The notes beneath the pieces are model-generated. The model was not told where the DNA came from. It searched no databases and saw nothing but the letters and a program-made list of their open reading frames with translations. A stretch of DNA of 64,000 nucleotides from Lytechinus pictus (Eukaryota): assembly GCF_037042905.1 (NCBI RefSeq), contig NC_087251.1, positions 34,164,001-34,228,000 of the forward strand. The letters run 5' to 3'. Shown piece after piece: positions 5,001 through 62,047 of this stretch (position 1 is its first letter; each line of letters starts with the position of its first letter). Both the position numbers and the translations under genes were made by a program.

Positions 5001-5857
5001 AATCATCATGGTTGACAGAATAGGGCCTGTTTTTCTCTCCTTCAGGAAATGGTTCAAATTCCCCATGCACTTTACATCAATGAAATGCATACATGTACAA
5101 CTGTATCTGAATACTAAACTTCTATGGCAACCACCTGTAGATTAAGGTTAACCTGTCTGTAAAGACTACTTGCATGGTTTCTCTAATAATTTTTCTCATA
5201 AAAATATTTTAAAAACATGTATTTCAGGAACCTGTCCATAAGGATCACCTGCTTTATACACAGATTACTTTACTTTACTTTCTTGGGTGATGTTTATAAA
5301 CAAGTTTCACTGTGTATCCAATTTATGTTTACTTGTAATGAGGCAAGCCATCATACATGTTCATGTCAACCAATACATTTTCATGTTTGACATATACATC
5401 CCTTTTTAGAACCTAACATTTTATCAACACAGAAAAATCTATATCGATTTTATAGGCATTCATTTATTTTTTCTATGCATTAAAACTACTACATGTATTT
5501 AAAGGATACTGGTTACTTTTTCTTCGAAAACAAAGGTTTAACGTCAAAGTGTACCATCAACTAAAAGTCACAATTTTTCATTCATACTCTTTAAAAAACC
5601 CAAAAGTACAATCTATATGTATATAAAGCAAAGCAGATTTCTATAATTAGCTCATTTTTCTGCTTGTATGAAAGTGAAACACACTCATTAAGGCCCTCAT
5701 TCCACAGAACAGAACAGAAACCTTTGAAAGATCACTGAACGATCAAGCAAGTTTCATGGTCTTTCTGGGATCTAAAGTCAGTGGAAATGTGGATTAAAAA
5801 ACCGTATAAAGTAATGGTAATTATTTCTTTAATACCACCTACATTGATCAAACTTAC

Positions 5858-6006
5858 CTGAGAATCTTCACTAGACAAACTGGTCTCTGATGGAGACCAA
5901 GGAATACTGGAGGAGGAGATCGCTAAGGAAGAGCGCCGTCGCTTGGATAACGTGCAATCATTAGGAATTTTGAAAGCGCACCGTTTGTGGTAGTTTCCCC
6001 CACACC
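5858..6006 (-). CDS. PRKD: PRKD coding exon 4 (C1a end and linker)
   Basis: Not in ORF track; hand translation [58 protein letters not shown] borders; 149 nt, phase 1 to 0. Confidence 0.95.
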
Positions 6007-6441
6007 CTATAGTGAAAAGAGCAGAAAGATGAAATCGTTTGAAAATTGTTGGACTGTGTGAGGTACTGCGACTTACAAATATTTTTTCATAGATTGTGGG
6101 GAGCGATGAACTCTTTTTGCTCCTCTTCTGAAAGCATTCACAAATTCAAATCAAATGTGTGGATTCCAAGAATTACATTAAAAGTAGATTTAAACAATAT
6201 GGCAGCATAAATGCAACAATATCAATATATTTTCATGTAAGAAATGCTCTAGTATCTTCTGTGGTAATGCAACACTTGAGTAGTGTCAATCCACAAAATT
6301 TTAATACTGATATTTAAACTCCCACTAAATGCATTTTTATTGACTGTAAACTGGTTCCTAGACCTATCTACTATTAAGGTTCATTAATAATATTTATACA
6401 TGTCTGTAGAAAATTGTGGATAACAAAGTTGTTGAGCTCAC

Positions 6442-9524: not shown

Positions 9525-11711
9525 CTTTATTCATTCATTTCATTTCCTTTATTGATATTATAATGGAAGAGTATTTTTATATATTTTTCTTTATTACAAT
9601 GGGCCATTTACATGTACCCCACTTTTCAAATACACATCATATAATTTTTTAAAGACATGTACTATTCATAGAGGAAATGATAACTCCTGTGGGATAGCAA
9701 CATCTCCATATCCATGTGTAAATCAAAACAAGGCCAAATCAAAATATTTCAACAATAAAACAACCACAAGGAAAAAAAAACTGTTAACCATTTTGTAAAT
9801 CGAATTAAGAAATTAACAGTCACATAAAACTTTGCAAGTCAGTGCAACCAAAATTACATCTCAAACACGTGATACATGTATGTGACTATATTTTGTTGTA
9901 CATTGTAAGAAGCTTTGTACAGGACTTTTCCTTTCTCCTACTTTTAATGGAATATGGATTTAAATGCATTTCACAAACGTGATTGGTTAAAATCTGCCAA
10001 CATTTTGGCACGTGTATGGTGTCCTTTTTTTTAATTTCTCAATGGTTATTCTGCTTTGAAAGAAAAATATATTACAAAGCAAAAGTAAATCAAATATTGG
10101 CAACAATGTGGCCTTAAAAATGTTCAATATCATGCTATTACAAGTTTGCATTAAAATATCCACCTCAGACTTTGCTTCCAATTTTGTATGTGTAAATTTG
10201 TATTTAGTCATTGAAAAACAGCTGAAATATTTTTGTTTATCATCATCAAAGAAAGGATTTTCATTCATGACACTGTAAATGGCACACCCAAATTTAGATT
10301 TTTTAATTATCTACTTTATTCATAACCAATTAAAAAAAAAAAAAAACAAGTCATTTGCACTACACAATTTATGATATACTGTCTTATTCACCAATCACCA
10401 ATGTTGTGTTATAATCAAAGTTGTTTTTTTCCAGTTTTACAATCTGGAAATCTGAATGGTTTTTAAGTTGAACCCTCCAAATGTATTAATGCTCAAATAA
10501 TTTTGAAGGGTATACAAGTGCTGTGTTTTTTATGATTCACTGGTGAAAAATGAATTCAGCAAGTGGAGAATAAATGTAATTTTAAATTGTTTACATCCCA
10601 TGTGCACAAGTGTATTTTCAATGTGAGATTTGTCCCCTTTCTATGCACAATCTAAATGTATTTCAAAACTTGTTTGCAAAATATTCAGTAAATTTATGTT
10701 TAATATGTGCATATAAATTTAGTAAAATCAGATTTCTAGCAAAATCAGAAAAGGCATGCAAAGTTGCAAACAAAATCGATCCATACATATTGGAATTCAA
10801 AATCATACAGCAGTCACTGTAAACTTGGTGTCTTAAACAGACAAACAATAATTAAAAATCATATGGCGTACATGTAAATAGATATGATCGCGAATGTTTT
10901 AATTGCATAATTTAAGAGTAATTAATTTCATTCATACAAATAAAATAATTATCTGTAAAAAAACAATCTAATACAAAGCATACATTTGTATTAATGCAAT
11001 ATCATCACTAATGTAAATTTTAATATTTATATTGTTTTATGATGATTTACGAACAGAGATATAAAAAGTATGTTTTTTTTTTATTTCATTAATTGATTTT
11101 TAATTGATTTCATTATTATTATGTTTAAGAGATCGGGATAACACAAAACAACGTATGAATGATGGGCTAAAAATTCATCACTTTCAGTAGCTACTATTAG
11201 CTTTATGTATTAAAAGCTTTATTTTTTGACCATGTGTAAACTTTTATCAAATAAATAAATGATTATATATTTCAAGTACCACATTAAAGCGAAATATCAC
11301 AGAGTGATCCGTTACACACTGTACTAATGATTTCACAATGGTTCACAACAGAAAAAAAATTAGTATGATTTCACGAGGGAACATTTTATCCAGTTCAAAT
11401 GGAAATGGTGGGTAATCAGTCGTGCAATTAGCTCGATAATCAAAACAGTTAATGCGTACTTAGGAATGGGCGATTTCAAGTATGGTGTTGTTTATGTTTG
11501 TTTGGTGGTGAGAGCAAGAATGAGACTACCTACATATATGTACATTGAGCTTTATACCAATACGGTTTACACCTTGATAACAAAACACTCATCTTTAATT
11601 CAGTTGTGTATCTGGTGTTACATGTAGAGCTTACATGTACATACATGTATGCCTGAACACCAGCACAAATTTTCAACACCAAACTGGAAGTCGATTGTGT
11701 TAATATCTTAC

Positions 11712-11850
11712 CTGATAATACGGCCTCAATGAGGGCACCCTCCGTCACATCGTTAACTGAGGTTACGGGTGTGAGAGAGTAGCTCGCACCTGGATTGTGC
11801 TTGAAGAGCAGAAGCTTGTCATATACTCCATAAAAATCATGCTCTGGAAA
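11712..11850 (-). CDS. PRKD: PRKD coding exon 2 (ULD second half)
   Basis: ttttttggcag|FPEHDFYGVYDKLLLFKH...EGALIEAVLS|GTAAG; 139 nt, phase 0 to 1; typical PKD FPE.GFYG.YDK.LLF.H motif. Confidence 0.95.
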
Positions 11851-12185
11851 CTGCCAAAAAAAAAATGAAATCAAATGAAATAATTAAGAAAACCATTTCA
11901 AGGGTACTGTAAAGTTGCAGTAAACACTAATTTCAGGAGAAAGTCTGTAACTTCCGGGGGGGGGGGGGGGGGAGGCTATTCGAATTATAACATGATACCT
12001 ACACTACAGTATGTGCCACACCAAAGCCGGAAATAGGGGGCTCTGGAACTAAATCTTGGTCTTGAAAGTGGGGGTCTCCAGAAAGGCTCTTGAATCATAC
12101 CCCAAATCATGCTCATATTTGATGCTTGTTTTGCTAATTTCTCAGCAATTATACCAATTCTTCCAGAATCCTTTGGTACATGTAC

Positions 12186-27608: not shown

Positions 27609-27782
27609 TCTTTGTCTAACCATTGAGGTAACAATTTCTTTTATGAGTGGGATGGAAGGGTCACCTCCCTCTGGGGGAATCTGAAAATTTTCTCGCACAA
27701 ATCCTATCTGCACGGCAAACGACACTCCATGAACCAGCCCCGGTCGGGTCGTCGGCGGCAGCGGCGGTAGCTCTTCCCCCAT
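27609..27782 (-). CDS. PRKD: Protein kinase D, coding exon 1 (N-terminus, first half of ubiquitin-like domain)
   Basis: ATG at 27782, MGEELPPL...GVSFAVQIGFVRE...IKEIVTSMVRQR, then AGA|GTAAGT donor; 174 nt, phase 0; resembles the PKD N-terminal ULD. Confidence 0.9.
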
Positions 27783-34990: not shown

Positions 34991-35349
34991 GTAAGTATAG
35001 TACTCAGTTTTCTTTCATTCCTGCTGCAAGTAACCAAGGCTTAGTTATGAACTTGCAAAAAATTGTCGCAGCTGAATCTGAGCCGTACGGTACGGTAATG
35101 CCGTGGACGCTTGCTCCCGGTGCTCCGGCTTGGATAGCGGGTAGGCGGTATGGCACCGTATGCTGCAAGCCGCAGCTACACTGCAGCTTCAGCTTGTTCA
35201 TCCATTCAGCTGAATCTCAGACTCAAGTTCGGTGTTGGTGTTGAGAGCATGGAATGGCAGTTAACCCTGCTACAGTAGGGAGATTTTTTAATTTAATGAG
35301 ATTTGGTGCATACTAGACAGCTGGCAGCCGTCTGTTCCCAGGTCAAAAA

Positions 35350-35985
35350 ACCAGTTAAGGACCAGTTCATCCAACTGGTACTGGTACCAGTTGATTCCAG
35401 TTAGCGAACTGGATTCAATATGGAAATTGGAATACTGGAATCAACTGGAATCCAGTTGATTCCAATACTGGAATCAACTGGAATCCAGTTGACAAATTGT
35501 AACTGGTACCAGTTGGAAATACCAGTTGGCAACTGGTCCTAACTGGTACCAGTTAGCAACTGGTACCAGTTGACAACTGGTCCTAACTGGTACCAGTTAG
35601 GACCAGTTGGAAACATGAGTTGTCAACTGGTGCCAGTTAAAACCAGTTGGAAACACCAATTGTAAACTGGTGCCAGTTAGGACCAGTTGGAAACATGAGT
35701 TGTCAACTGGTGCCAGTTAAAACCAGTTGGAAACACAAATTGTCAACTGGTGCCAGTTAGGACCATTTTGAAACATGAGGTGTCAACTGGTGCCAGTTAA
35801 AACCAGTTGGAAACACCAATTGTCAACTGGTGCCAGTTAGGACCAGTTGGAAACATGAGTTGTCAACTGGTGCCAGTTAAAACCAGTTGGAAACACCAGT
35901 TCCCAACTGGTGCCAGTTAGAACAAGTTGGAAGCACCAGTTAGGACCAGTTGGAAACATAAATTGTCAAGTGGTACCAGTTAGAA
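35350..35985. repeat. Left subterminal array, 40-nt units alternating as an 80-nt dimer
   Basis: tgtcaactggtgccagtta(g/a)(g/a)accagttggaaaca... repeated; core palindrome AACTGGTACCAGTT. Confidence 0.92.
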
Positions 35986-37351
35986 ACACCCTGCAATGTA
36001 TAGCATAAACAAAAATGAATCATGTGGATATGTACATTCCCGATCTTTTACTCTTCTCGTATAATCACTCCTTCGTTTTCCTTGCGCACACACACATTAG
36101 AATATTGGTACCAACACCCCCCCTCCCCCCTCTCAGGCGGTTATTTCAATTATAAATTATCTTCAATTATCTTTACATTGAATGTCCACTCCTGTTATAA
36201 CAATGTGCAAGGACAAGTGAAATAATTATCCTTGCACATAGGACTGATGAAATGAATCAAGGTAAATTTGTAGCATTGTATTGAAACCTTGTTAATTTCC
36301 ACATGCACAATATAACAGGATTGGACTGTAAACTTGCTCTGGTAAATCAATCCCTCAGTCTCTTGAAATCTGTACCAAAAAACATCAGAGAATGACAAAA
36401 GTCACAAAAAACATCTATATGGTATTTAAACTAGGAATTTAATGAAAGAAAATTATGTTACAAACTGTAACATGCTGTGTATAATTCTTGTATTATGTGT
36501 CAACAAAGATCATTAACTTACACAGTAAATATGTAGTCAATCCAATTTTTACATGCTAGCTTGGAGACAAAATTTGAATATAATGCATCTAAGCATTTAC
36601 CTTCAATAAATAATATGTACTATTTTTAAAGGAATGATAAAGGAGTCTTTTTTTAATTATTATTTATTGAGATCTTGGGGCCCTCACTGGCTCTGAAGAG
36701 GAAACGTGAAACAGGTACCTTCCTTTCCTGTAGTGGCACTTGATCTTTGCTGGTAGATGCGATATATCTGAAGATTAGAAGAAAAAAACAAATGGAATGA
36801 AAAATAATAAGTACAGTGAATACCGTAATACAAAATTTCAGTGGTGTAAAATTATATCTGCACATAAAGAAAAATACATGGGATAGTGAAACTTCTCTAA
36901 GTTCCATATTTCAATGATTCAATTATAAATGATAGACAGCACATCATCATTTTTATTACAACATGTATAGTAAGTTCACATGGTCTTGGGAATACTTCTG
37001 AAATTGACATTGCAGAGATGAAATTGCCTCGACCTTATACCTATACATTTATTTTAATAATAAAGACTTAGACTAAGTATGTTTGCATATATGTATCTAG
37101 GAGTCTATGTTGCACATTATCTGCTAACATCTGATGGGTATTTCATGATTGTCAGTGCCGACTATTTCAGTGAAATCATTGCTTTTGATTGGCTGAGAAG
37201 CACTGGCCTCTGACTGTTACTATGGTAACTGTCGGAAAAAGACAACTTGTTAATGCTGACAACTTTCAAAAAGCAGTTCCCAGAACATGTTTAAAAACGC
37301 AAGACAAAGCAAAAAAAAAAAATGAAATACAAAATTTTATCCGAGGATTAA

Positions 37352-37938
37352 AGGGATGGTCCGGGCCGAAAATATTTACATCTAAATAATACTTGAGTAA
37401 AATTCACAGAGCAAAATGATGAAAATTTCATCAAAATAGGATAACAAGAAGTTATTGAATTTTAAAGTTTATCAATATTTTGTGAAAACAGTTGTATGCA
37501 CTTCGTCATGAATATTCATTAGGTGGGCTGATGTCACATCTCCACTTTCCTTTTTTTTATGTTACTAGATGAAATCATAAATGTTTGATTTTTTCATACA
37601 CGTGTAAATGATGCGTCTCCATTGTAATGAAATAAGTTGCGTCAATAACTAATGCACCTAATCAGTTGTCAATCCAATTGTCAATAGTTCTTGGTTAAAA
37701 ATATCTTAATAAACCTAATCTCATATAATAAAATACAAAAGGGCAATTGGGATATGACATCATCAGCCAACCTAATGAATATTCATAAAGACATGCCTAG
37801 AACTATTTCACCGGAATAATGCAAATCTTTAAAATTCAAAACCTTAATTAGTTATCAAATTTTGATCAAGTTTTCAGCATTTTGCTATGTGAATTTTACT
37901 CTATTTATTGAGATATGTTTCCAGCCTGGACCATCCCT
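37352..37938. mobile_element. Kolobok-type MITE family A nested in the CACTA-like element
   Basis: TTAA|AGGGATGGTCC...GGACCATCCCT|TTAA. Confidence 0.88.
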
Positions 37939-38237
37939 TTAATTCTACTTCTACGGTACCCCCACACATACTGGTAAGTCAGAGGTAAAAAACAACGAGA
38001 ACCAATTTAATTTCAAAGATAAAAAAATACTTCAGCCTCCAGATTTAAGAAAAAATTCAGGAAATGTTATTTTAGTTCAGACTAATTGCGCACGTTTCAT
38101 TTCGGAGGTCAATCTGAAATTATACTTCCAGTTTTAAATTCACGCCATTTGGTTATGCAAAAGCATGAATTAAAATTGATGGGCATGGGCCCATGTCACT
38201 GGCTAGCCTAGAGGACTCCATGAAGATAATTTTATCA

Positions 38238-39295
38238 TTTTTACATTGTATTTTCATCACGGAGCCTAGACAAGCCTCCTATAAGGTTGCTCGTACAACT
38301 GTGTAAACAAAGATAGATTTCCCTCGGAAATCCACCTTTCCCATAATGATTTTTGGGCAAACATTAAATTTTTACATTTTGTAAGCCTTGATACTCTAAA
38401 TGTGTACAAAGGCTTTAAAAAAAATTAATTGTAAAATGTACAAATTGGAAATTTTCTTACAAAAAGGATCACTTGCTTGCAGATCTAGTCCTCACTGCCT
38501 CTGAAGAGTTCACGTGCGACAGGTACATTCCTTTCCTCTACTGGCACACATTCTTTGCTGTTAGATGCGATGTATCTGAGGAATTTTTTTCAAAAACAAT
38601 GGAGAGAAAAATAATCAGTACAGTGAACAACAGCGAATAACAAATACGTATATATTACAGTGAATAGCAATACATGTCTACACCTTAGGCGGGCAAGGGT
38701 TACTACAGAGTGTTGTAAAATTCCATTTGCACTTTAAGAAAAATACATGGGATTGTGAATCAATTTTTACATTGTATTTTCATCACGGAGCCTAGACAAG
38801 CCTCCTATAAGGTTGCTCGTACAACTGTGTAAACAAAGATAGATTTGATTTTTCCTCGGAAATCCACCTTTCCCATAATGATTTTTGGGCAAACATTCAA
38901 TTTTTACATTTTGTAAGCCTTGATACTCTAAATGTGTACAAAGGCTTAAAAAAAAATTAATTGTGAAATGTACAAATTGGAAATTTTCTTACAAAAAGGA
39001 TCACTTGCTTGCAGATCTTGTTGTCCTCACTGCCTCTGAAGAGTTCACGTGCGACAGGTACATTCCTTCCCTGTACTGGCACACGTTCTTTGCTGGTACG
39101 GTAGATGCGATGTATCTGAAGAATTTTTTTTTAAACAATGGAGAGAAAAATAATCAGTACAGTGAACAGTGAATAAAAATACGTCTATATTACAGTGAAT
39201 AGCAATACATGTCTACACCTAAGGCGGGCAAGGGTTACTACAGAGTGTTGTAAAATTCCATTTGCACATTAAGAAAAATACATGGGATTGTGAAT
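38238..39295. repeat. Recent ~526-nt tandem duplication inside the CACTA-like element; third, diverged partial copy at ~36670-37020
   Basis: tttttacattgtattttcatcacggagcctagac starts at 38238 and 38764, with near-identical downstream sequence. Confidence 0.92.
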
Positions 39296-39776
39296 CAATG
39301 ATTCAACTATAATGATAAACAGCACATCATCATATTTATTTAAAAAATGAGTAAGTTCACTTGGTCTTGGGAATACTTCTGAAATCGATGTCGCAGAGAT
39401 CAGTCCTTCATGTTTATAATTCCATGGAGCTCAATAAATGGCTCTCCTTATGCCTCCGAATTTGCTTTCCTAGACACACTCAATTTTATAAAATGCTCAA
39501 TTGTTGTAGATTGTTATTAAAATTGTAAATGCAACAGCTGTGTAGCTATCAATTAATCTGTGGTGAAACTAGGCTTGGGTCATGTACAAAATATCGCGCT
39601 CCTCAAAAAAAAATTATAAGTAGGGTGTCCGAACTCATATTAGGCCTAAAAAAAGTGCTAGAATTTCATATTTTACATCTTTAAAACCATTAAATCACCA
39701 TCTCTTTTCCATAATTCTCATAATAGAAGATACACAAAGACCCCAAAAGAAAACTTGACATCTGAATTACCTAACT

Positions 39777-39946
39777 TACAGCCTCCTCATATGGAGGGCA
39801 GCAACGAAGTATTCGGATCTCTACTCCTGGCGGTTCTGAGCTGGGCCTTCTTCTGGAAACTACCGGTACCCCAGGTCATGTTCACTGACTTCATCTCCTC
39901 CTCGAGGCTCAGTATGACTCCAGGTGGTTTTGGGTCTCCCTCTCTC
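39777..39946 (-). mobile_element. Degenerate 3' end of an RTE-clade LINE ORF, bounded by splice sites
   Basis: With frameshifts reads RGRPKTTW..LEEEMKSVNMTWG...KKAQ.RTA...FVAALH*, the typical RTE C-terminal signature. Confidence 0.7.
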
Positions 39947-40659
39947 CTGAAATACAGAGTCAAAAAGTGATAAACAGCTAGGCCTATTCATGAAAAAATC
40001 AGACTCTTAAAATGGTGGAAAAAATAATGAATTTCGATTTTCGGCATTTCAAAATCTCATCAAAATCCTCAAATCGTGTGTAAAGTGATTGGTGCGCAGA
40101 CACGAGGCGCTGGCCACTATCATAATGTTAAATCTGAAATTGAAAATCATAACTGGCTGAGTCTCAGATTTTTTCCAAGACCAAGAAAATCAGTTTCACA
40201 TTCGATCACATATCTCTCTCATTTACTTATAACAATATATGGAACAATATCAACTGAAAGATTTTGTGAAATAAAAAGAAATTCATGTTAAATCTTAACA
40301 CAAATCGTAAGGTCAATATGATGTATGTGCGCAGACTTGCACCGGCATGGCAGCCACACATCCACGCCCGGCTAGTCGCGGCCGGCAGGCAGCGCTGAGG
40401 GGCAGTAACAGGATGTCCTGACGAACTCTAACGTTACAGCTAGCCCCGCAGCTAGCTGCGAGCCGCGCCATTTAACAAACTACGAAAAGAAAATCATAGA
40501 AAATTGTTAACTTACCTGTAGAGCCTACTGCGAATGTCTTAGCTTTCAAGTCATTGTCCAAATCTGGTCCGTGTGATTTCAGTGGTTGAATTATTATTAA
40601 AACGGCCTTCTTTATCCTTCTTTATCGCACTAGCACTCGATAAAAGTGCGGTGCAAATT

Positions 40660-40800
40660 ATCGGCGCGGCGAAGATGGCTCTTTCAAATTCAAATTAGAT
40701 TGGCGGTTTGCGTTTGGCGGCGCTGGTTAATTTGCATAATTATACGGACGATAGCGATCAGTGGCACTCAGTGCGCATGCGCAGGCCCGCCCGCGCCCGG
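40660..40800 (-). promoter_or_regulatory. CpG-rich promoter within the CACTA-like element
   Basis: YY1 AAGATGGC 40672; two TTTGAA (CHR-like, minus strand) 40683-40694; CCAAT (minus) 40699; E2F-like TTGGCGG x2 40700-40720; octamer ATTTGCAT 40730; NRF1 palindrome TGCGCATGCGCA 40772-40783; GC box ~40785. Confidence 0.65.
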
Positions 40801-42134
40801 TGATTGAAGGAAGATCTGCTGAGTCAGGAATAATGAAGGGGGGGGGGGGTCTAAAGCAAGAAAGAGGTTTTAAAATAGATATACGAACTTCTTAACATAA
40901 AAATTTCTTCTTGTTTGGTTTTGGTTGGCAACCAGTCAAGAAATGACGATTTTTGCCTCTGCTTTTGGAGCTTTTTTTTTTCTTTGAAAGTTTAAGAATG
41001 AATTAGCTTAATATTTGTTCTTTATTTCTATTTTATTTATTTTCTTTTTCTTTGAAAGATAAAGATAGCCTTGCTTAACATGGCAAGGTTGTAAACTAGC
41101 AATAAATATGCGCATTATAAATAGAAAAAAATAGCTATTCTATTCACCTTCAAAAATATTTTTAAAATATCAGTGAGTTAAAAAAAGAAAAATACATTAA
41201 TTTTTATATGATTTGTAAAAATAGTGTAAAATAGTCCTCTTTAACTTAAATTAGAAAAAAGGGATTAAATAGGAAGAAATTTTTTTCTCGCAACATATAT
41301 CTAGGATAACAATTTTTTTAATGTAAACTAGAAAATTTCACTGAGAATAACATGTTTCGATTTAAGTTATATGGTAATATCGAACCACATACTTTAATGA
41401 AACTTTTCAAGGTGGAAATATTAAAATTAACATAAAGAATAATTAAGTTAGTTATTATGTAGATATTTTTTTCCTCTTATCCTCAATCGAGCTGTGTATA
41501 GGATGGATAAATGCATGGCATTTATTGTGGTAAAAGGCTGAATTACATGAATTTGTACAGAGCAAAATTTCAGTAAACAAATAAGCAACAAAAAAAAGTA
41601 TACTAATGTATAATATTGGAAAGGGGATACAAAAAGAAAAGTATACAGGGAGGGGGGGGGGAATAATGTCAAAAGCAGGAACGGACAAATGTTGGGAGTA
41701 GGCTAAATGTATATACCTTTAACATAATGAACATTTTCACATAAATATATATTTAACCAATGTTGAATGAATAACAATACATGTAGATTAAAGAGTGGAT
41801 TGTATGAAATAATACTTGCTTTTTTTTAAGAAAAGTAACGCTTTGTTGATGGTAACAATAATAATAGTTATAGGAAACACATTCATGAATGATAATCATA
41901 AAGAATTATCTCAAAAGGAATTAAAAACAAAGATAAGAGGACTTTGAAGTAATATGATTTGTACAAAAAATATAAATATTAATGTAAAGTGGGTTACAGC
42001 TATATTGAGCCAGTGACTTGTCGGATAAGAAATTTGAATGATTACTGCAGATATCAACAATTACAAAAATATTTCAAAAGTCAGTTACAGTTTAAGCGAC
42101 AAATAAAACAACAAAGGTATGAAAACATAGTTCT

Positions 42135-42141
<7 letters not shown>

Positions 42142-42188
<47 letters not shown>
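42142..42188. repeat. (AT)n microsatellite
   Basis: Direct reading. Confidence 0.95.
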
Positions 42189-42193
<5 letters not shown>

Positions 42194-42274
42194 CTGTTGG
42201 AAATAAGTACAATGCATTACCACTATGCCTCTTATATACATATATATATATGTATATATTATATATGTATATAC

Positions 42275-43345
42275 GGGTTCTTACTAGAATCAACTGGTAA
42301 GTCCTATTGGTTCTAACTGGTATCATTTGGTTTGATATTCCAGTATGGTTAATGGGTTTCAAGTGGGTTATGGGTGGCCTATGGGTTTCAACTGGTATAA
42401 TCTGTTCCAGTTTGGTTTATGGGTTTTAACTGAAATCAGCTGGTAGATATATACTGGTAATCATGCCTATTGGTTCTAACTGGTATCAATTGGTTTGATA
42501 TTCCAGTATGGTAAATGGGTTTCAAGTGGGTTATGGGAGGTCTATGGGTTCCAACTGGTAAAATATGTCCCAATTTAATTGATTTATGGGTTTTAACTGG
42601 AATCAACTGGTAGTATACCAGTAATGTATGCTGGTTTAACTGGTATCAATTGGTTTGAAATTCCAGTATGGTTAATGGGTTTCAAGTGGGTTATGGGAGG
42701 TCTATGGGTTCCAACTGGTATAATCTGCTCCAGTATGGTTTATGGCTTTTAACTGGAATCAGCTGGTAGATATGCCAGTAATGCCTATATTGGTTCTAAC
42801 TGGTATCCATTGGTTTGATATTCCAGTATGGTTAATGGGTTTCAAGTGGGGTTATGGGAGGTCTATGGGTTCCAACTGGAACACTCTGATCCAGTTTGGT
42901 TTATGGGTTTTAACTGGAATCAACTGGTAGGTATACCAGTAATGCATGTTGGTTCTAACTGGTATCAATTGGTTTAATGATATACCAGTATGGTTTATGG
43001 GTTTAAGGTGGCATTAACTGGTATATACACCTATTGGGTTTCTATGGGTTCCAACTGGTATCAAATGGTCCAGTTTGGCTAATGGGTTTTAAACTGGAAT
43101 CTATTGGTAGATAAACCAGAAAGGCCTATTGGTTTTAACTGGTATTAACTGGTGTACTAATTTATACCAGTATAGTTAATTGGTTTCAACTGGAATAAAC
43201 TTGTATGTTTTCAGCATGTCCAGTTGGGACAATGGGTTTCAACTGGAATATACTGGCATGGTGGGAGTTTACCAGTTGTGCCAATTGGTTTCAACTGGTA
43301 CCAGTTGACTCCAGTTGAAACCAGTTAAAATTTCAACTGGTTTCA
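42275..43345. repeat. Right subterminal array, ~160-nt units with the same AACTGG core
   Basis: aactggtatc.attggttt recurs at ~42316, 42478, 42638, 42798 and 42957. Confidence 0.9.
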
Positions 43346-46300
43346 ACTGGTTTTTTTACCTGGGTTTCAAGGAGTTTTTTTGAGGTTCCAAACTTCCAGT
43401 CTGTGCCTCGCCCTCGATATTAATTATTATTTAACAACAGGATACTGCCACACGATAGACCTGCATAATTTCTGTTTTCACAATTTTCTTTCCAAGTTAT
43501 TGAGACCACAATCTACCCTAGTCCCGTGTCTATGTGTAAATGCACGGTGAGCTTCCTGGGTTAGCTATCGTGCAGCCACCATTAGTAGGGGGTTAACAAT
43601 GCAAAATCCTCCCAACGGGGCTCATCGATTTTTGTCTTTATTTCATAAATATATATGAAAAGTGTACCAAAATAAAGATTATTATTCCATTTTGGCCTGA
43701 AATGCACCAAAACGGGGAAAAAGTTAACTTAAAAGGGGAAAAAACAGTGACTTACTTCGCCTTCGGCTGTCGCGCGAATTCACTTCCCTGTTTTAATACA
43801 TAAACGTATGGATTATGGCCATTGAGTCCCTGTACAGATCGAGCTAGAACTTCGGTCTCTGTATTTGATGAGTTGAGCCAACAGAGTTCAGTGGAACAAC
43901 CAACATAACAGACCGAAGCTTTTGGTCTAGGTGCATACCTGGTCTATGTAGGAGACAACAGTCACAGCTCAGCCTGTAATTTAAATTACAACATCTAACT
44001 TAGTCGTTGACAACATTAATCACCAGATATTGTGATACTTGCACAAGTCGAGACGATTAAGATTTCGTCATAGGCCTAACTTTACATTTAAGTTAAAAAG
44101 TTATTTAAAAAAAACTACAAAGGGGAGGAGAGCTTCCCCCAGAACGTGATAATAGTCAATAACATAATTTGTCAGTAAACGTTGAATCATAAAACAGACA
44201 AATAAAGTCTGGAACATGACATTCTGCACAAAGATCTAATTCTAGCATTAGATCTAACGTGATCAGCCTGAATATGAATCAATTTTTTTTTCAATCTGTA
44301 ATTTAATTGAAAAGTAGTTGTAATTGAGCATTTCTTCAATTATGTAATTGTAATTGAAGAAAGTAATTGAGCCCAACCCTGGTAATGGTAACCTTAAGCA
44401 TAAAACTATATAGATATAGAAAATTATTTACTATTGTGCCTTTCACCACTTTACATCTTTTTATCTGATACTATATTATTACTGTATTACAAGTGGGGTA
44501 CTTTTTTGTATCACTTACAATTCTTCCATTCTTCTAGATGAGTAAAACTAGAACTATATCATAAATAGAAGTACTTGGAAGTTACCTTTCTTAGGTTTGT
44601 GCTTTTTATAAGATTTCTGATAGTAAAAGGTATAACCTCTTCGGAAAATCCCCAATTTGTCCCAAAAATGAAAGGGGAAAATTATTTATAAGAAATAATG
44701 CAATGTTAATCTTTAAAGCTGCAGTAATTTCTATATAAATATAGTTATTTCATATTTGCATTGGTAGTTTATCTTATCTAAAGAAATCTAATAAAGAAGT
44801 GTAACTTCCTTTTTTATTCTAAAAACACATTTCATGATATTTTTTTATAATTCTATTATTCGAACCCAAATAAAATGTTGTTAGAGAGGAAAAGAAAAAT
44901 CAGAAAAGAAGATATAGACTCTTCTGAAATTTTGAACAATATCAAACAAGCGATACAGAAGTTATGAATTTTTGAAAGTTGTAAAATTGATGAGCTCTTT
45001 ACCTATGGAGACTTCAAATTGTTTGCATTTGTGATAAAATGGTTAAAATGTTATTATCAAAAGCCTCACTTCAAATGATCTTTTTCTTTCATGAGGACAT
45101 GAACACTATACTACCTGTGTTATATTTTTATAATTGCCCCAGAGGAATACATGTACATGTGTAGGTACTTAAGGTAAAACCATAAATCTTCTCCCAACTA
45201 CATGTCATTTTTTTCCACTTCAACCACCCTGCCTATGGTGAATCTACATGTAGATCTATGCAGCATATTATAGTACACATTTTAAAATTCTTTACCTTTT
45301 TACCCAAAATACTCAGATCCATAAAGTTATTGTTTTTCATTATTAACTTGGGGATAATTTTTTATTCACTATAGCACTCAAAAACTTGAATTTTGAGCAT
45401 ATTTTTGTGTGGGCCCTCTAATGATGGAAAGCAAAGTTGGTCTGAATTGTTACCAAGCAATCTCTCTTTTTAATTTAGAAAAACAATAATAAAAGAATTC
45501 AATTTACTTTAGAGCCAACTTATATGATGAATAGCTGTAATAGAAAATGATAGTGTAAAAGAATCAAGCATTTGATCCCAAGAACAACAGAAAATAAGCC
45601 AAACATTGCCATTGTTATTTCACCACACAGGGAGTACTAACAGAGGACAAGGTAATATCATAACATTATACATTGAATGAGTGCTACTTGTCATAATTTA
45701 CTTACTCAGGTCCCAGTTTGAAATTTACATAGTCTTAGGAACCTCAATTTTAGAACAGCCATAACTTTCTTATTGCTTGTCCAAACTTTTTAAAACTTTC
45801 ACTATTCTGTTTAGCTTATTTTCTCCTCTCAGACTCTCACACAACATTTTATGACCAGGGTTGGATTCCCTTTAATCATCTAATGGCATGCCTAAAAGTT
45901 ACAAGATGTAAATTAGTGATTCTCTTTGTTTTGTTTTGTTTCATATCAAGCTCAAACTATACATGTACAAATCCAATAAGTTGATTAATCTGATAATTCT
46001 TGATATATTTGACTGAAATTAAATATGACTTGATTCACTGTCTATTTACATCCTGACCAAAATATGTTAACATAACTCTGCCTTTATCCCAGGTTTTTTA
46101 ATCCATGTTTGTACACCTTTTCAATAATGTAATATCAGGCCTTATAGATCTATATTTTTAACCTTTTAAGATCACCTCTACTGTGTGACAAACTTGACAA
46201 AGCTAAATCCCATAAAGCAGTCTTTTGCATTATACCAAATTCCAATAGCTTAATCTTTAATATCAAGCAAAATTTAGAATTATAGATTTTGTTTATGGAG

Positions 46301-59081: not shown

Positions 59082-62047
59082 TTATAGACTGCAAACTAGT
59101 TCCCGACCAGCATCTTTGGCCTCATTCACTTTCAGGACAAGGCTGCGAAAAGCCTCATCGGTGAATCCTGGTTGGCCATCCACAACACTGTACCAATTTC
59201 GGATAACTGAAGGATGGGGTAGTTGCAAATCAAATGTCTTCCGAACGTACCTATAAGCCTTGGCAGAATAGAAGTTAAGGGTGATGGCAAATGCACGAAG
59301 AGCAGGTGGATATTTCTCCCCTGATGGCTTGTCATACCTTCTTCTCCTCACAATTCTATTAATAAGTTCACTAGGAATGTCGCATGTCTTGTCCAGTGCC
59401 TCAAGTCCATTCTCTGAAAGAAAATTCTTCCCTTTCAGTGTTGAAACTACGTCTTTGAGTGTGCTATTAAACCTTTTTTCGTAGACGCCTAGATTTTGCT
59501 TGAGAATTTTTCAAACGCTTTTAAAGATTGGAAGTATGGTCAAGCAATTTGTCAAGCTTTCGCTTTACACTGCGTGGACTGTCACTGATGGAATATGTGA
59601 GGTCTTGGTGGGTCATGCCTGTCTTCCTCTTGATAAGAGTTAGTGGATGCATCTTTGAGCATTCAGAGCTACTGGGAAGTTTTTGAGGAGTTGAAATCTC
59701 TTCGGTTCCATGATCTGATTGATGACAGTCGTCAATGGGTTGCTGTGGTGCTACAACGGGAACTATGTTGTCTGATAGGACTGGTTCAGCAGACTCTGAA
59801 ACTTCCGGGGAACAATTCTCTTAGTTGACCCTTGGATATGATGCTTTCCTTTGTTTTGTAGACTGCAAGAAACAATAACAGACGAATAAAAATATTAGAA
59901 AAAGGGTTTCACTGAATATAGTTGTATTAGTTTTTGCAACTCACAATGTCACATTACTTTCTATTTCATTTCTGAGCAAAGAAATACCCTGAAAGAAAAC
60001 GAAACTCTGAAATATTTGAGCTACATGTAAATGTATCCCCTCCCCCTCCAAACAAAATAAAAACAACACTTTATCACAAAATTTGGCAAGATTAAAATTA
60101 AGGTGAGTGGTACAAGAAATTGAAAGTTATATAAAAAGAATTGAAATGTACAATACAGATAAAAACATACAAGTCAGACATGAAAACATACTAAAGAACC
60201 CATTAAACTCTCCCTAATTCCAGTTTCAATTAACAAACAATTCACAACTGGATACAAGTCACTTTTAATAATATGTCATAATTAATTTTGCAGGTGGGTT
60301 TGTAAGAATTTTGCCCACACACAAAAAGAAATTACATATTGCAATGTACCTATTTTTTACTGCTTCAGAACATTTACTCTCTTTACATTAATAATTAATA
60401 ATTTTCATTTCAAGTAATATACCTTCAAAAGATGTTTAGGAAAGTTGAAGATGGTTGGGACTGCATCAGGACGAAGTCTAGTTGTCTGTCCAGTCCGGTC
60501 AAAATAGCTTTCTTCAAAGTGGTCTGAGCAGATAGTGGAGTGGCTGAGGGGTGTCCAAAAGTCTCGCCTCATTTTCACCTGCCATTCTTTGAGCAAAGCA
60601 GGATTAGGGTTAGAGAGGAGACACTTTCAATTTATTACATGATTACATTTTTTTACAAGTTACAAGATTACCAGACCATGACCACTGACATCAGCATCTC
60701 ACTCAAAAGCCAACCTCAAAGTCGGATCTAACTGTTAGATCTAGTCACAACACTCAACATGTTCAATCAAGTAGCACAGACACCGAGATACTTCTGTGTC
60801 CATGGTGTTTCAAGTTTCAAGTTTCATTTATTTCTCCTCAAGAGATCAAGATAAAAATACATAAAAAATAGACAATGTAAATACAATGAACATCAAATTT
60901 AAAGAAAGTGAGGAAGGTAATGACCAAAACGGAAGAAACCTTGTGTGAGGCCAACCCATAACAAAAATTGTACTTAAAGGAGAATGAAACTCTTGGAGCA
61001 AGTTAGCTTTTGTGAAAGCAGAAAAATCAAAGAATGAGATCAACAAAAGTTTGAGTAAAATAGGACTAGCAATAGAAGAGTTATGAGCAATTGAATGTCG
61101 AGATCACTAATGCTATGGAGATCCTCCCATTGGCAATGCGACCAAGATCTATGATGTCACAGATGAACAACTCTCCCCTTTTGGACACTGAAAATATACC
61201 CCAAAACATCTCTTTTTGCTCATTCTAATCATATGACAAACGATTCATCAATGATATAATGTTGTGAAACCTCTGTACTTGTCCTCTCATAAAGAGAACA
61301 CCTCACCTTGTGATAGACTCTATAAAAGTGAGAATATAAGTGAAATAAGTACTTAAGTAATGAGGGAGTTGTACGTGTGTGACATCACAGATCTTGGTCG
61401 CATTGCCAATAGGAGGATCTACATGGCATTAGTGATCTCAATATTCAAATGCTCATAACTTTCTTATTATTCATTCAATCTTCCTCAAACTTTCAACAAT
61501 GTGTTTCTTTGATTTTTCTCTTTGATATGGATTCAGCTGGTTTCAAGGGTTTCATTCTCCTTTAAAGTTAAAGAAATATTAAAAACATCATATAATCACA
61601 AATTCAATGAGAAAAAAAAAAAAAAAAAAACATAACAAACAAACACCTAACTAAACCTTAACCAAATGAGAATGGGGGGGGGGGGGGGAGAACCAAAAAT
61701 AAATCTAAGACTTAGACAATAAAAATGTTTTGTATTTCCTTTTAAAAACAGATACCGAAGGGCTTGATTGAATGTCAGAAGGGATTGAGTTCCAAATAAC
61801 TGGTCCTTGATAAAATATACTGTTTTTGAAGATGGAAGTACTGCACTGTGCAGTTGTACTGCACAATGGAATATGGATATTTTGGGAATATCAATTAATG
61901 TCTGTTGTTATGGTGTAGCGTCTATCGTTGCCATGCATTGCCGGACAACTTCATTTTTTGGCACAAAATGTAAACTTACCTGTGAAATGTATGGCCCAGC
62001 TTCTTCCCTGTTCTATTTGTGCAATAAACTGCAACACAAGATGGCAT
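59082..62047 (-). pseudogene. Spliced THAP-domain / P-element-type (THAP9-like) transposase pseudogene in PPP1R36 intron 10
   Basis: Exon 1 61980-62047 MPSCVAVYCTNRTGKKLGHTFH; exon 2 ~60423-60620 LLKEW...ICSDHFEESYF...LRPDAVPTIF (THAP C2CH and AVPTIF box); exon 3 59082-59862 with KYPPALRAFAITLNFYSAKAYRYVRKTF..LPHPSVIRNW. In-frame TAA at 59821 and 59521, frameshift ~59465, exon 2 acceptor out of phase, truncated after LVCSL. Confidence 0.88.
60978..61561. mobile_element. Kolobok-type MITE, family B subfamily, in THAP intron 1
   Basis: TTAA|AGGAGAATGAAAC...GTTTCATTCTCCT|TTAA; same arms as family B, different core. Confidence 0.9.

Follow-up and report, generated by a model that had tools for sequence, protein, structure and literature searches.

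The DNA analysed here, called the window below, is a 64,000-nucleotide stretch of the Lytechinus pictus genome (NCBI RefSeq assembly GCF_037042905.1, contig NC_087251.1, positions 34,164,001 to 34,228,000 of the forward strand), and all positions are given in its own numbering. At 35337-43364 lies a transposon, one copy of a family that we call E, which belongs to the non-autonomous animal EnSpm/CMC class (TRC type). Its terminal inverted repeats (TIRs) begin with CCCAGG at both ends and agree at 19 of 20 terminal bases, it is bounded by a TT/TT target site duplication (TSD), and the motif AACTGG/CCAGTT occurs 48 times in the left subterminal array, 33 times in the right one and twice in the 6.3 kb between. 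There is no transposase frame inside the element, the longest stop-to-stop frames being 102 and 111 amino acids (aa). This anatomy had been noted in a first-pass annotation made from the letters of the window, and it stood, as did the annotation's central proposal, a non-autonomous element of EnSpm/CMC type that carries a promoter of its own and gives rise to a spliced non-coding RNA from the minus strand. This unit is present at dozens of sites in the genome.

The annotation had proposed a copy search with the TIRs and the interior, and this search returned TIR-bounded copies that share the cargo. The exact end patterns were present in the genome as 51 right and 46 left ends (controls, 0), and 43 of 58 loci examined were two-ended, all 43 with an exact 2-bp TSD, which extended to 3 bp in only 1 of 31 copies. 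The copies are 7.3 to 9.3 kb long (median, 8.15 kb). The promoter-exon stretch matched at 94-100% in all of the 40 genome places scored, and a 24-mer from exon 2 was found at 62 places with 0 or 1 mismatch, 3 of them in another family; we estimate about 55 to 60 near-identical copies of family E. With the right array set aside, copies diverge from the consensus by 0.5-1%, evenly over exons, introns and promoter. Family E is young and has multiplied recently as one unit, and the single interior common to all copies implies a fixed body, not a pick-up specific to each copy. Another 18 loci found through the TIRs had the same interior, insertions or lone ends, with no CMC transposase, and at 9 loci with variant ends there were additional or older copies, fragments or unrelated sequence. 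An apparent special conservation of 39500-40800 among E copies arose from two copies that are homologous only in part; once these were masked, divergence was flat. Some copies (L061, L064, L071, L076, L041 and L116) carry later insertions of 0.5 to 15 kb, some with reverse-transcriptase-like frames.

The minus-strand transcript

RNA was followed in three ribo-depleted, strand-specific RNA-seq libraries (X10, X11 and X12), using ~6% of each raw run. First-mate-plus depth over 38,010-40,719 was 25 to 59 in X10 and 15 to 46 in X12, with no more than 3 on the opposite strand and none above 40,720; in X11 it was at most 4.8. Around exon 1 the edge is sharp, with depths of 32.1 and 29.5 in 40449-40719 versus 0 in 40720-40990. 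These reads describe a spliced minus-strand transcript of the family, running from ~40,700 to ~36,400 and seen in two of the three libraries. Six GT-AG junctions were present in X10 and X12, and because their ends read CT..AC on the plus strand, the minus strand is the transcribed one, independently of library strandedness. With the two libraries added together, 53 reads joined 40515 to 39946, 26 joined donor 39770 to exon 3 and 18 joined it to 38575, 18 joined 38992 to 38575, and acceptor 36767 was reached from 38460 (31 reads) and from 38992 (12 reads). Because exons 3 and 4 are almost identical, the division of junction reads between them is uncertain. X5, a run from a marine metagenome, also had two of the six junctions, in its oligo-dT contigs. 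Intron depth was near exon depth, which implies that much of the RNA is unspliced.

Most of the gene model that had been drawn from the letters was borne out by these reads, namely the CpG island, the 40515 donor, the 39946 acceptor and a triplicated exon. Its exon-2 donor at 39779 did not appear among the 15 joints listed (8 weaker ones apart), the reads using 39770 instead. Read depth passes the AATAAA at 36668 and drops only at ~36,400, closer to an ATTAAA at 36443. The GT/AG of exon 4 was intact in 51 of 51 mapped copies. Exon 2 is 183 nucleotides (nt) long in 20 of 40 aligned copies, as against 176 nt here, and the ~530-bp tandem duplication that yields exons 3 and 4 is missing from 3 of 40.

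At six sites where the window allele occurs in only 4 or 5 of 53 copies, 208 of 211 first-mate-plus reads had the other allele, so this RNA came from other E copies. The mix of alleles shows that several E copies contribute RNA; expression is established for the family, not for the copy at 35337-43364.

Table 1. Features of the family E copy in the window, from left to right
Feature	Coordinates	Strand	Evidence or remark
Left TSD copy (TT)	35335..35336	.	
Left TIR, CCCAGG start	35337..35356	+	19/20 versus right end
Left subterminal array, ACTGG core, 40/80-bp period	35337..35990	.	48 motifs; TRF 35585-35941
Transcript 3' region, homologous to family F, starting where F's left array ends	36018..36587	-	75%, 590 columns
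Last exon, third repeated-exon copy plus 3' region; 3' end approximate	36400..36767	-	
Nested miniature inverted-repeat transposable element (MITE), TTAA on each flank	37352..37938	.	inverted arms and ends
Internal tandem duplication, ~530 bp, giving exons 3 and 4	38234..39299	.	93.6% identity
Exon 4, 115 nt	38461..38575	-	junction reads
Exon 3, 123 nt (118 nt in most copies)	38993..39115	-	junction reads
Exon 2, 176 nt, common to family G	39771..39946	-	44 junction reads, donor 39770
Intron 1, 5' third GC/CpG-rich	39947..40515	-	53 junction reads
Exon 1, non-coding; start at or below 40719	40516..40700	-	homologous in E, F and G
CpG-island promoter	40660..40810	-	NRF1-type palindrome (presumed) at 40772-40783
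Decayed F right subterminal array and terminus (CCCTAG/AAATAG type), enclosed in E	41057..41303	+	70.9%, 244 columns
(TA)n microsatellites	42135..42273	.	
Right subterminal array, ACTGG core, 160-bp period	42290..43364	.	33 motifs; TRF 42305-43011
Right TIR	43345..43364	-	51 exact 28-mer genome matches; control pattern 0
Right TSD copy (TT)	43365..43366	.	

The nested MITE, which we take to be Kolobok-like, showed two-stranded background reads that originate from other copies.

Related cassettes in families F and G

Parts of the same cassette were found inside two further families with other ends. Family F elements are 2.5 to 4.4 kb long, with CCCTAG ends, AAATAG arrays, 7 cargo copies and, counting MITE forms, a 2-bp TSD in 6 of the 7 copies that have both ends; at 70-82% identity they share with E the repeated exon (present once), the 3' region, and exon 1 together with its donor. 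Family G elements are 6.6 to 7.5 kb long, with CCCTGA (CCCTGATAGCAG) ends, GACGTC arrays and a TSD in 10 of 10, and share with E, at 68-87%, exons 1 and 2, an upstream block and parts of intron 1. Exon 2 is thus missing from F and the repeated exon from G, so that no whole RNA is common to the families, and E itself is a mosaic that resembles G in exon 2 and F in the 3' half. Blastn found no similarity among the outer ends of the three families, and the array motifs are almost mutually exclusive. When 20 of ~90 further exon-2 places were examined, 10 were complete G elements, 4 had a G right end, 4 were E-type and 2 were unclassified. We found no literature description of the family or of CACTA elements with different ends that have a spliced cassette in common, and Repbase or Dfam may already name the families.

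The clue to how these families are related is the F-end remnant enclosed in E, which reaches to 6 bases from the F terminus and of which G retains the inner 70 bp. Its presence inside both suggests that the F-type shell is likely the older one and was later enclosed by E and G ends. Nesting of one EnSpm element within another was observed at four loci (L117, L135, L172 and L191).

Three F right ends lack the cargo, two of them 370-bp MITE forms and one a lone end. A 370-bp F-type MITE (L146-L147, G000:C1) sits within a gene whose 2072-aa open frame encodes Gly-rich repeats. The block 38210-38446 is inverted in G relative to exon 2, a sign of internal inversion, and G2 copies (e.g., L180:3027-3476) hold a 150-aa coiled-coil frame with a Pfam match only at E 0.11, which we presume to be a fragment like ORF1 of a long interspersed nuclear element.

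Comparison across the families separates the promoter from the RNA. GCA(T/C)GCGC, ATTTGAAA and the exon-1 donor were kept in all nine aligned E/F/G sequences, and the promoter palindrome is one that we take to be of NRF1 type. Between E and G or F, exons are 75-87% identical, most alignable intron and upstream blocks 77-89%, and the GC-rich part of intron 1 54-56%, while the core promoter is unalignable. As the exons are not better conserved than the introns, a function of the RNA is unsupported. CpGs with any decay in family E made up 13 of 38 in the island versus 51 of 77 elsewhere (Fisher p=0.0014), so the CpG-island promoter looks hypomethylated. Judged from these CpGs, the pattern fits a promoter that would stay open in the germ line while the RNA sequence drifts.

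On sequence grounds, the family transcript is non-coding, with no conserved reading frame. In the five-exon model, the longest ATG frame, which ends before the exon-2 donor, is 41 aa in 21 of 40 copies and 35 aa in 10 of 40. An 84-aa frame was set aside, as none of the listed junctions uses the 39779 donor that it requires. That exon 2 encodes a micropeptide would agree with an ATG frame of 35 to 41 aa in most copies and with initial codons common to G, but a 7-nt indel shifts the frame within E, frameshifting indels occur across families, and E and G use different frames through the middle of the exon. There is also a TAG at codon 8 of the exon-2 frame in 3 of 3 aligned G3 copies (10 of 13 rows of the cross-family comparison yielded sequence), and we regard a micropeptide as extremely improbable.

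The short non-coding exons also raise the possibility that the transcript hosts a small RNA (box C/D- or H/ACA-like) cut out of its introns. C box/D box pairs with a short stem are present at 39333-39154 and 36950-36838, but a comparable pair arises in 5.5% of random strands, the fold of 39148-39342 has a z score of 0.04, and the C/D-like segments are missing from F and G. In two libraries molecule 3' ends accumulate at 40311 (14 at a depth of 52 and 10 at a depth of 30), one library has an accumulation of 5' ends at 40504, and 40311-40504 folds with a z score of -2.7; against this, the GC-rich part of intron 1 is the block least conserved across families. The ends at 40311 and 40504 could be those of a stable intronic RNA or a library effect. 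In an Rfam scan none of 32 matches (up to E 5) was at gathering score, and no snoRNA family was among them. Taken together, these points make a small-RNA host very unlikely.

Autonomous relatives and the origin of the cassette

CMC transposase loci were found by PF02992 and protein search, and 17 transposase-bearing regions (20 to 40 kb) were examined. The autonomous partner with the same TIRs for which the annotation had suggested a search did not appear; two sisters with ACTGG arrays share 15 of 20 terminal bases with E. One is a 24.1-kb element (G000:C19:508574-532683) with a GA TSD and a Transposase_21 domain (PF02992) over the cut-off, and the other is a relative of it on C2. Elements on C13 and C14 have the first 8 bases of E and a different array motif. 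These autonomous EnSpm elements carry, on the opposite strand and read away from the transposase, a BEN-domain gene, with a match over the cut-off in the C13 element and below it (E 0.008) in the C19 element; we found no paper on a BEN domain together with an EnSpm transposon. The autonomous families (C19; C13 L098, L099 and L167; C21 L104 and L105) have subterminal motifs of their own: ACTGG, CCTATAG, AGCTTGC and AAACCAT. MITE-like derivatives of the C19-type element, mostly ~1.3 kb, were seen at L131-L138, and the one at L135 encloses an element with CCCAGG-type ends.

Could E be a plain deletion derivative, comparable to dSpm, with a promoter and exons that remain from an autonomous parent, for example from its BEN accessory gene? 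The annotation had offered descent from a transposase gene as its alternative, and the RNA does run to the left end as the BEN gene of the autonomous sisters does; spliced transcripts are reported from truncated SmTRC1 copies (PMC1636069). However, neither the cassette as a whole nor its exons and promoter had nucleotide similarity to the 17 transposase-bearing regions, though a parent missing from the assembly is possible. The best exon tblastx was E 0.4 among the matches listed (exons 1 and 2 only), and tblastx of the element against the sister autonomous element gave no match below E 0.28 outside the subterminal arrays. The NRF1-type palindrome was present in 0 of 5 autonomous elements scanned, and a single parent would leave three unrelated end types unexplained. 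We therefore consider a plain deletion derivative unlikely for E; for the first form of the cassette, in an extinct F-type parent, such an origin is possible.

The annotation's favoured picture, a Pack-CACTA-like vehicle, holds in that no transposase lies between the ends; as to host origin, every homolog found was in another transposon, in searches saturated by element copies. In its full form it would be the capture of a host long non-coding RNA (lncRNA) with a functional RNA. The housekeeping-type CpG promoter, a real spliced RNA in two of three libraries and splice sites retained across families ~20% apart speak for it. Yet no host locus was found, all homologs examined, those at the sampled exon-2 places among them, being transposon-borne; exon conservation is no higher than that of introns, F and G each lack part of the RNA, and no antisense host gene was seen. 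Capture of a functional host lncRNA is accordingly quite improbable.

The reading that we favour, and think probable, is that of a young transposase-less EnSpm/CMC element with a transcribed, spliced RNA lacking a conserved frame, whose cassette likely came from an engulfed older EnSpm-type element. E would be mobilised in trans, by cut and paste, through an autonomous EnSpm element that supplies a transposase and the divergent BEN-domain gene, whose product, by analogy with TnpA, may bind the ACTGG arrays. The cassette would have changed shells when insertions became nested and the outer ends were then the ones used, so that the captured DNA was itself another transposon. The RNA sequence would be a passenger, and selection, if any, would act on an open, low-methylation promoter. 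The cassette may first have arisen from a host gene or from an extinct autonomous element.

Several observations weigh against this reading. No autonomous element with the ends of E, F or G was found in the assembly, and both ACTGG sisters are damaged (an insertion in the first transposase exon on C19, a stop on C2). The three cargos are about equally diverged, which leaves the order of capture dependent on the F-end remnant alone. In G2, CpG decay was 2 of 35 in the island versus 19 of 116 elsewhere, a weak contrast, and 2 of 33 at the right end as well. No mapped E copy has a change in any of the 18 splice dinucleotide bases, where the background rate would predict variation at ~3 of them (an estimate, p ~0.05), a weak hint of constraint. 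Finally, the searches for a host source were saturated by element copies, 40 being scored of 186 to 1252 candidates.

A bolder reading, for which we would claim only a modest chance, is that the cassette is a transferable transposition enhancer that encodes nothing and moves between transposase systems. Its NRF1-type CpG-island promoter would hold the adjacent end open and free of methylation in the germ line, and an EnSpm shell that captured it would out-replicate its empty relatives.

Comparison with known systems places E among animal TRC/EnSpm elements (SmTRC1 of Schistosoma mansoni, the Tribolium and Aedes TRCs, and Spongebob; PMC1636069 and PMC4298943), with which it shares CCC termini and a 2-bp TSD and, in the case of SmTRC1, spliced transcripts from truncated copies. 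Unlike them, E is without a transposase, and for its transcribed unit, which is found within three unrelated end types, no similarity to any autonomous element was detected. As a mosaic outgrowing its sources, E has its nearest precedent in the zebrafish hybrid EnSpm-N49/N49B, likewise young, non-autonomous and transcribed, with a 2-bp TSD, 72 copies and more activity than both source families (PMC13189230). That hybrid joins two like-named families, and the accessible text describes no internal spliced unit or unrelated subterminal motifs.

Arabidopsis Pack-CACTA1a resembles E as a non-autonomous CACTA shell around foreign DNA, and its described route of capture, via neighbouring insertions that each lose one end, fits the F-end remnant in E (PMC6379663). 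It differs in its 3-bp TSD and host-gene fragments, whereas E encloses DNA traced to another transposon; since E works like a Pack element but a host origin is not shown, we do not class it as one. In maize En/Spm and its defective derivatives, TIRs and subterminal arrays, which E also has, are the cis sites for a transposase and an array-binding protein acting in trans, as summarised in PMC2613891. The sisters of E have a divergent BEN-domain gene instead of TnpA (its binding to the arrays being our supposition), and, in contrast to the defective derivatives, the interior of E was not traced to a helper, no collinearity with a same-ended parent being seen in the 17 regions.

Family E scatters ~60 working RNA polymerase II promoters with a spliced non-coding RNA, and ~90 related places exist besides. 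It is a clear example of the birth of transposable element-borne lncRNA loci in an animal and a warning for lncRNA annotation. If the promoter has indeed outlasted three shell changes while the exons drifted, this would point to selection at the level of the element, and the effect of an internal promoter on transposition of a non-autonomous element would become directly testable.

Genomic surroundings

The element had been placed antisense to a host gene. No plus-strand gene was seen (131 GC-richer frames were inspected by eye), and what we found was a protein kinase D-like gene on the same, minus, strand. Its first coding exon (27609-27782; by itself a Pfam match only at E 0.18) lies 7.6 kb downstream of the element, which points toward it, and further exons lie at 11533-11883, 5735-6145 and 1652-2074. 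At most 2 reads cross the ends of the read-mapped stretch, so no effect on this gene is shown. Elsewhere in the window, at 59085-60626 on the minus strand, frames with a THAP domain and a P-element-type transposase helix-turn-helix mark the remains of a THAP/P-like element.

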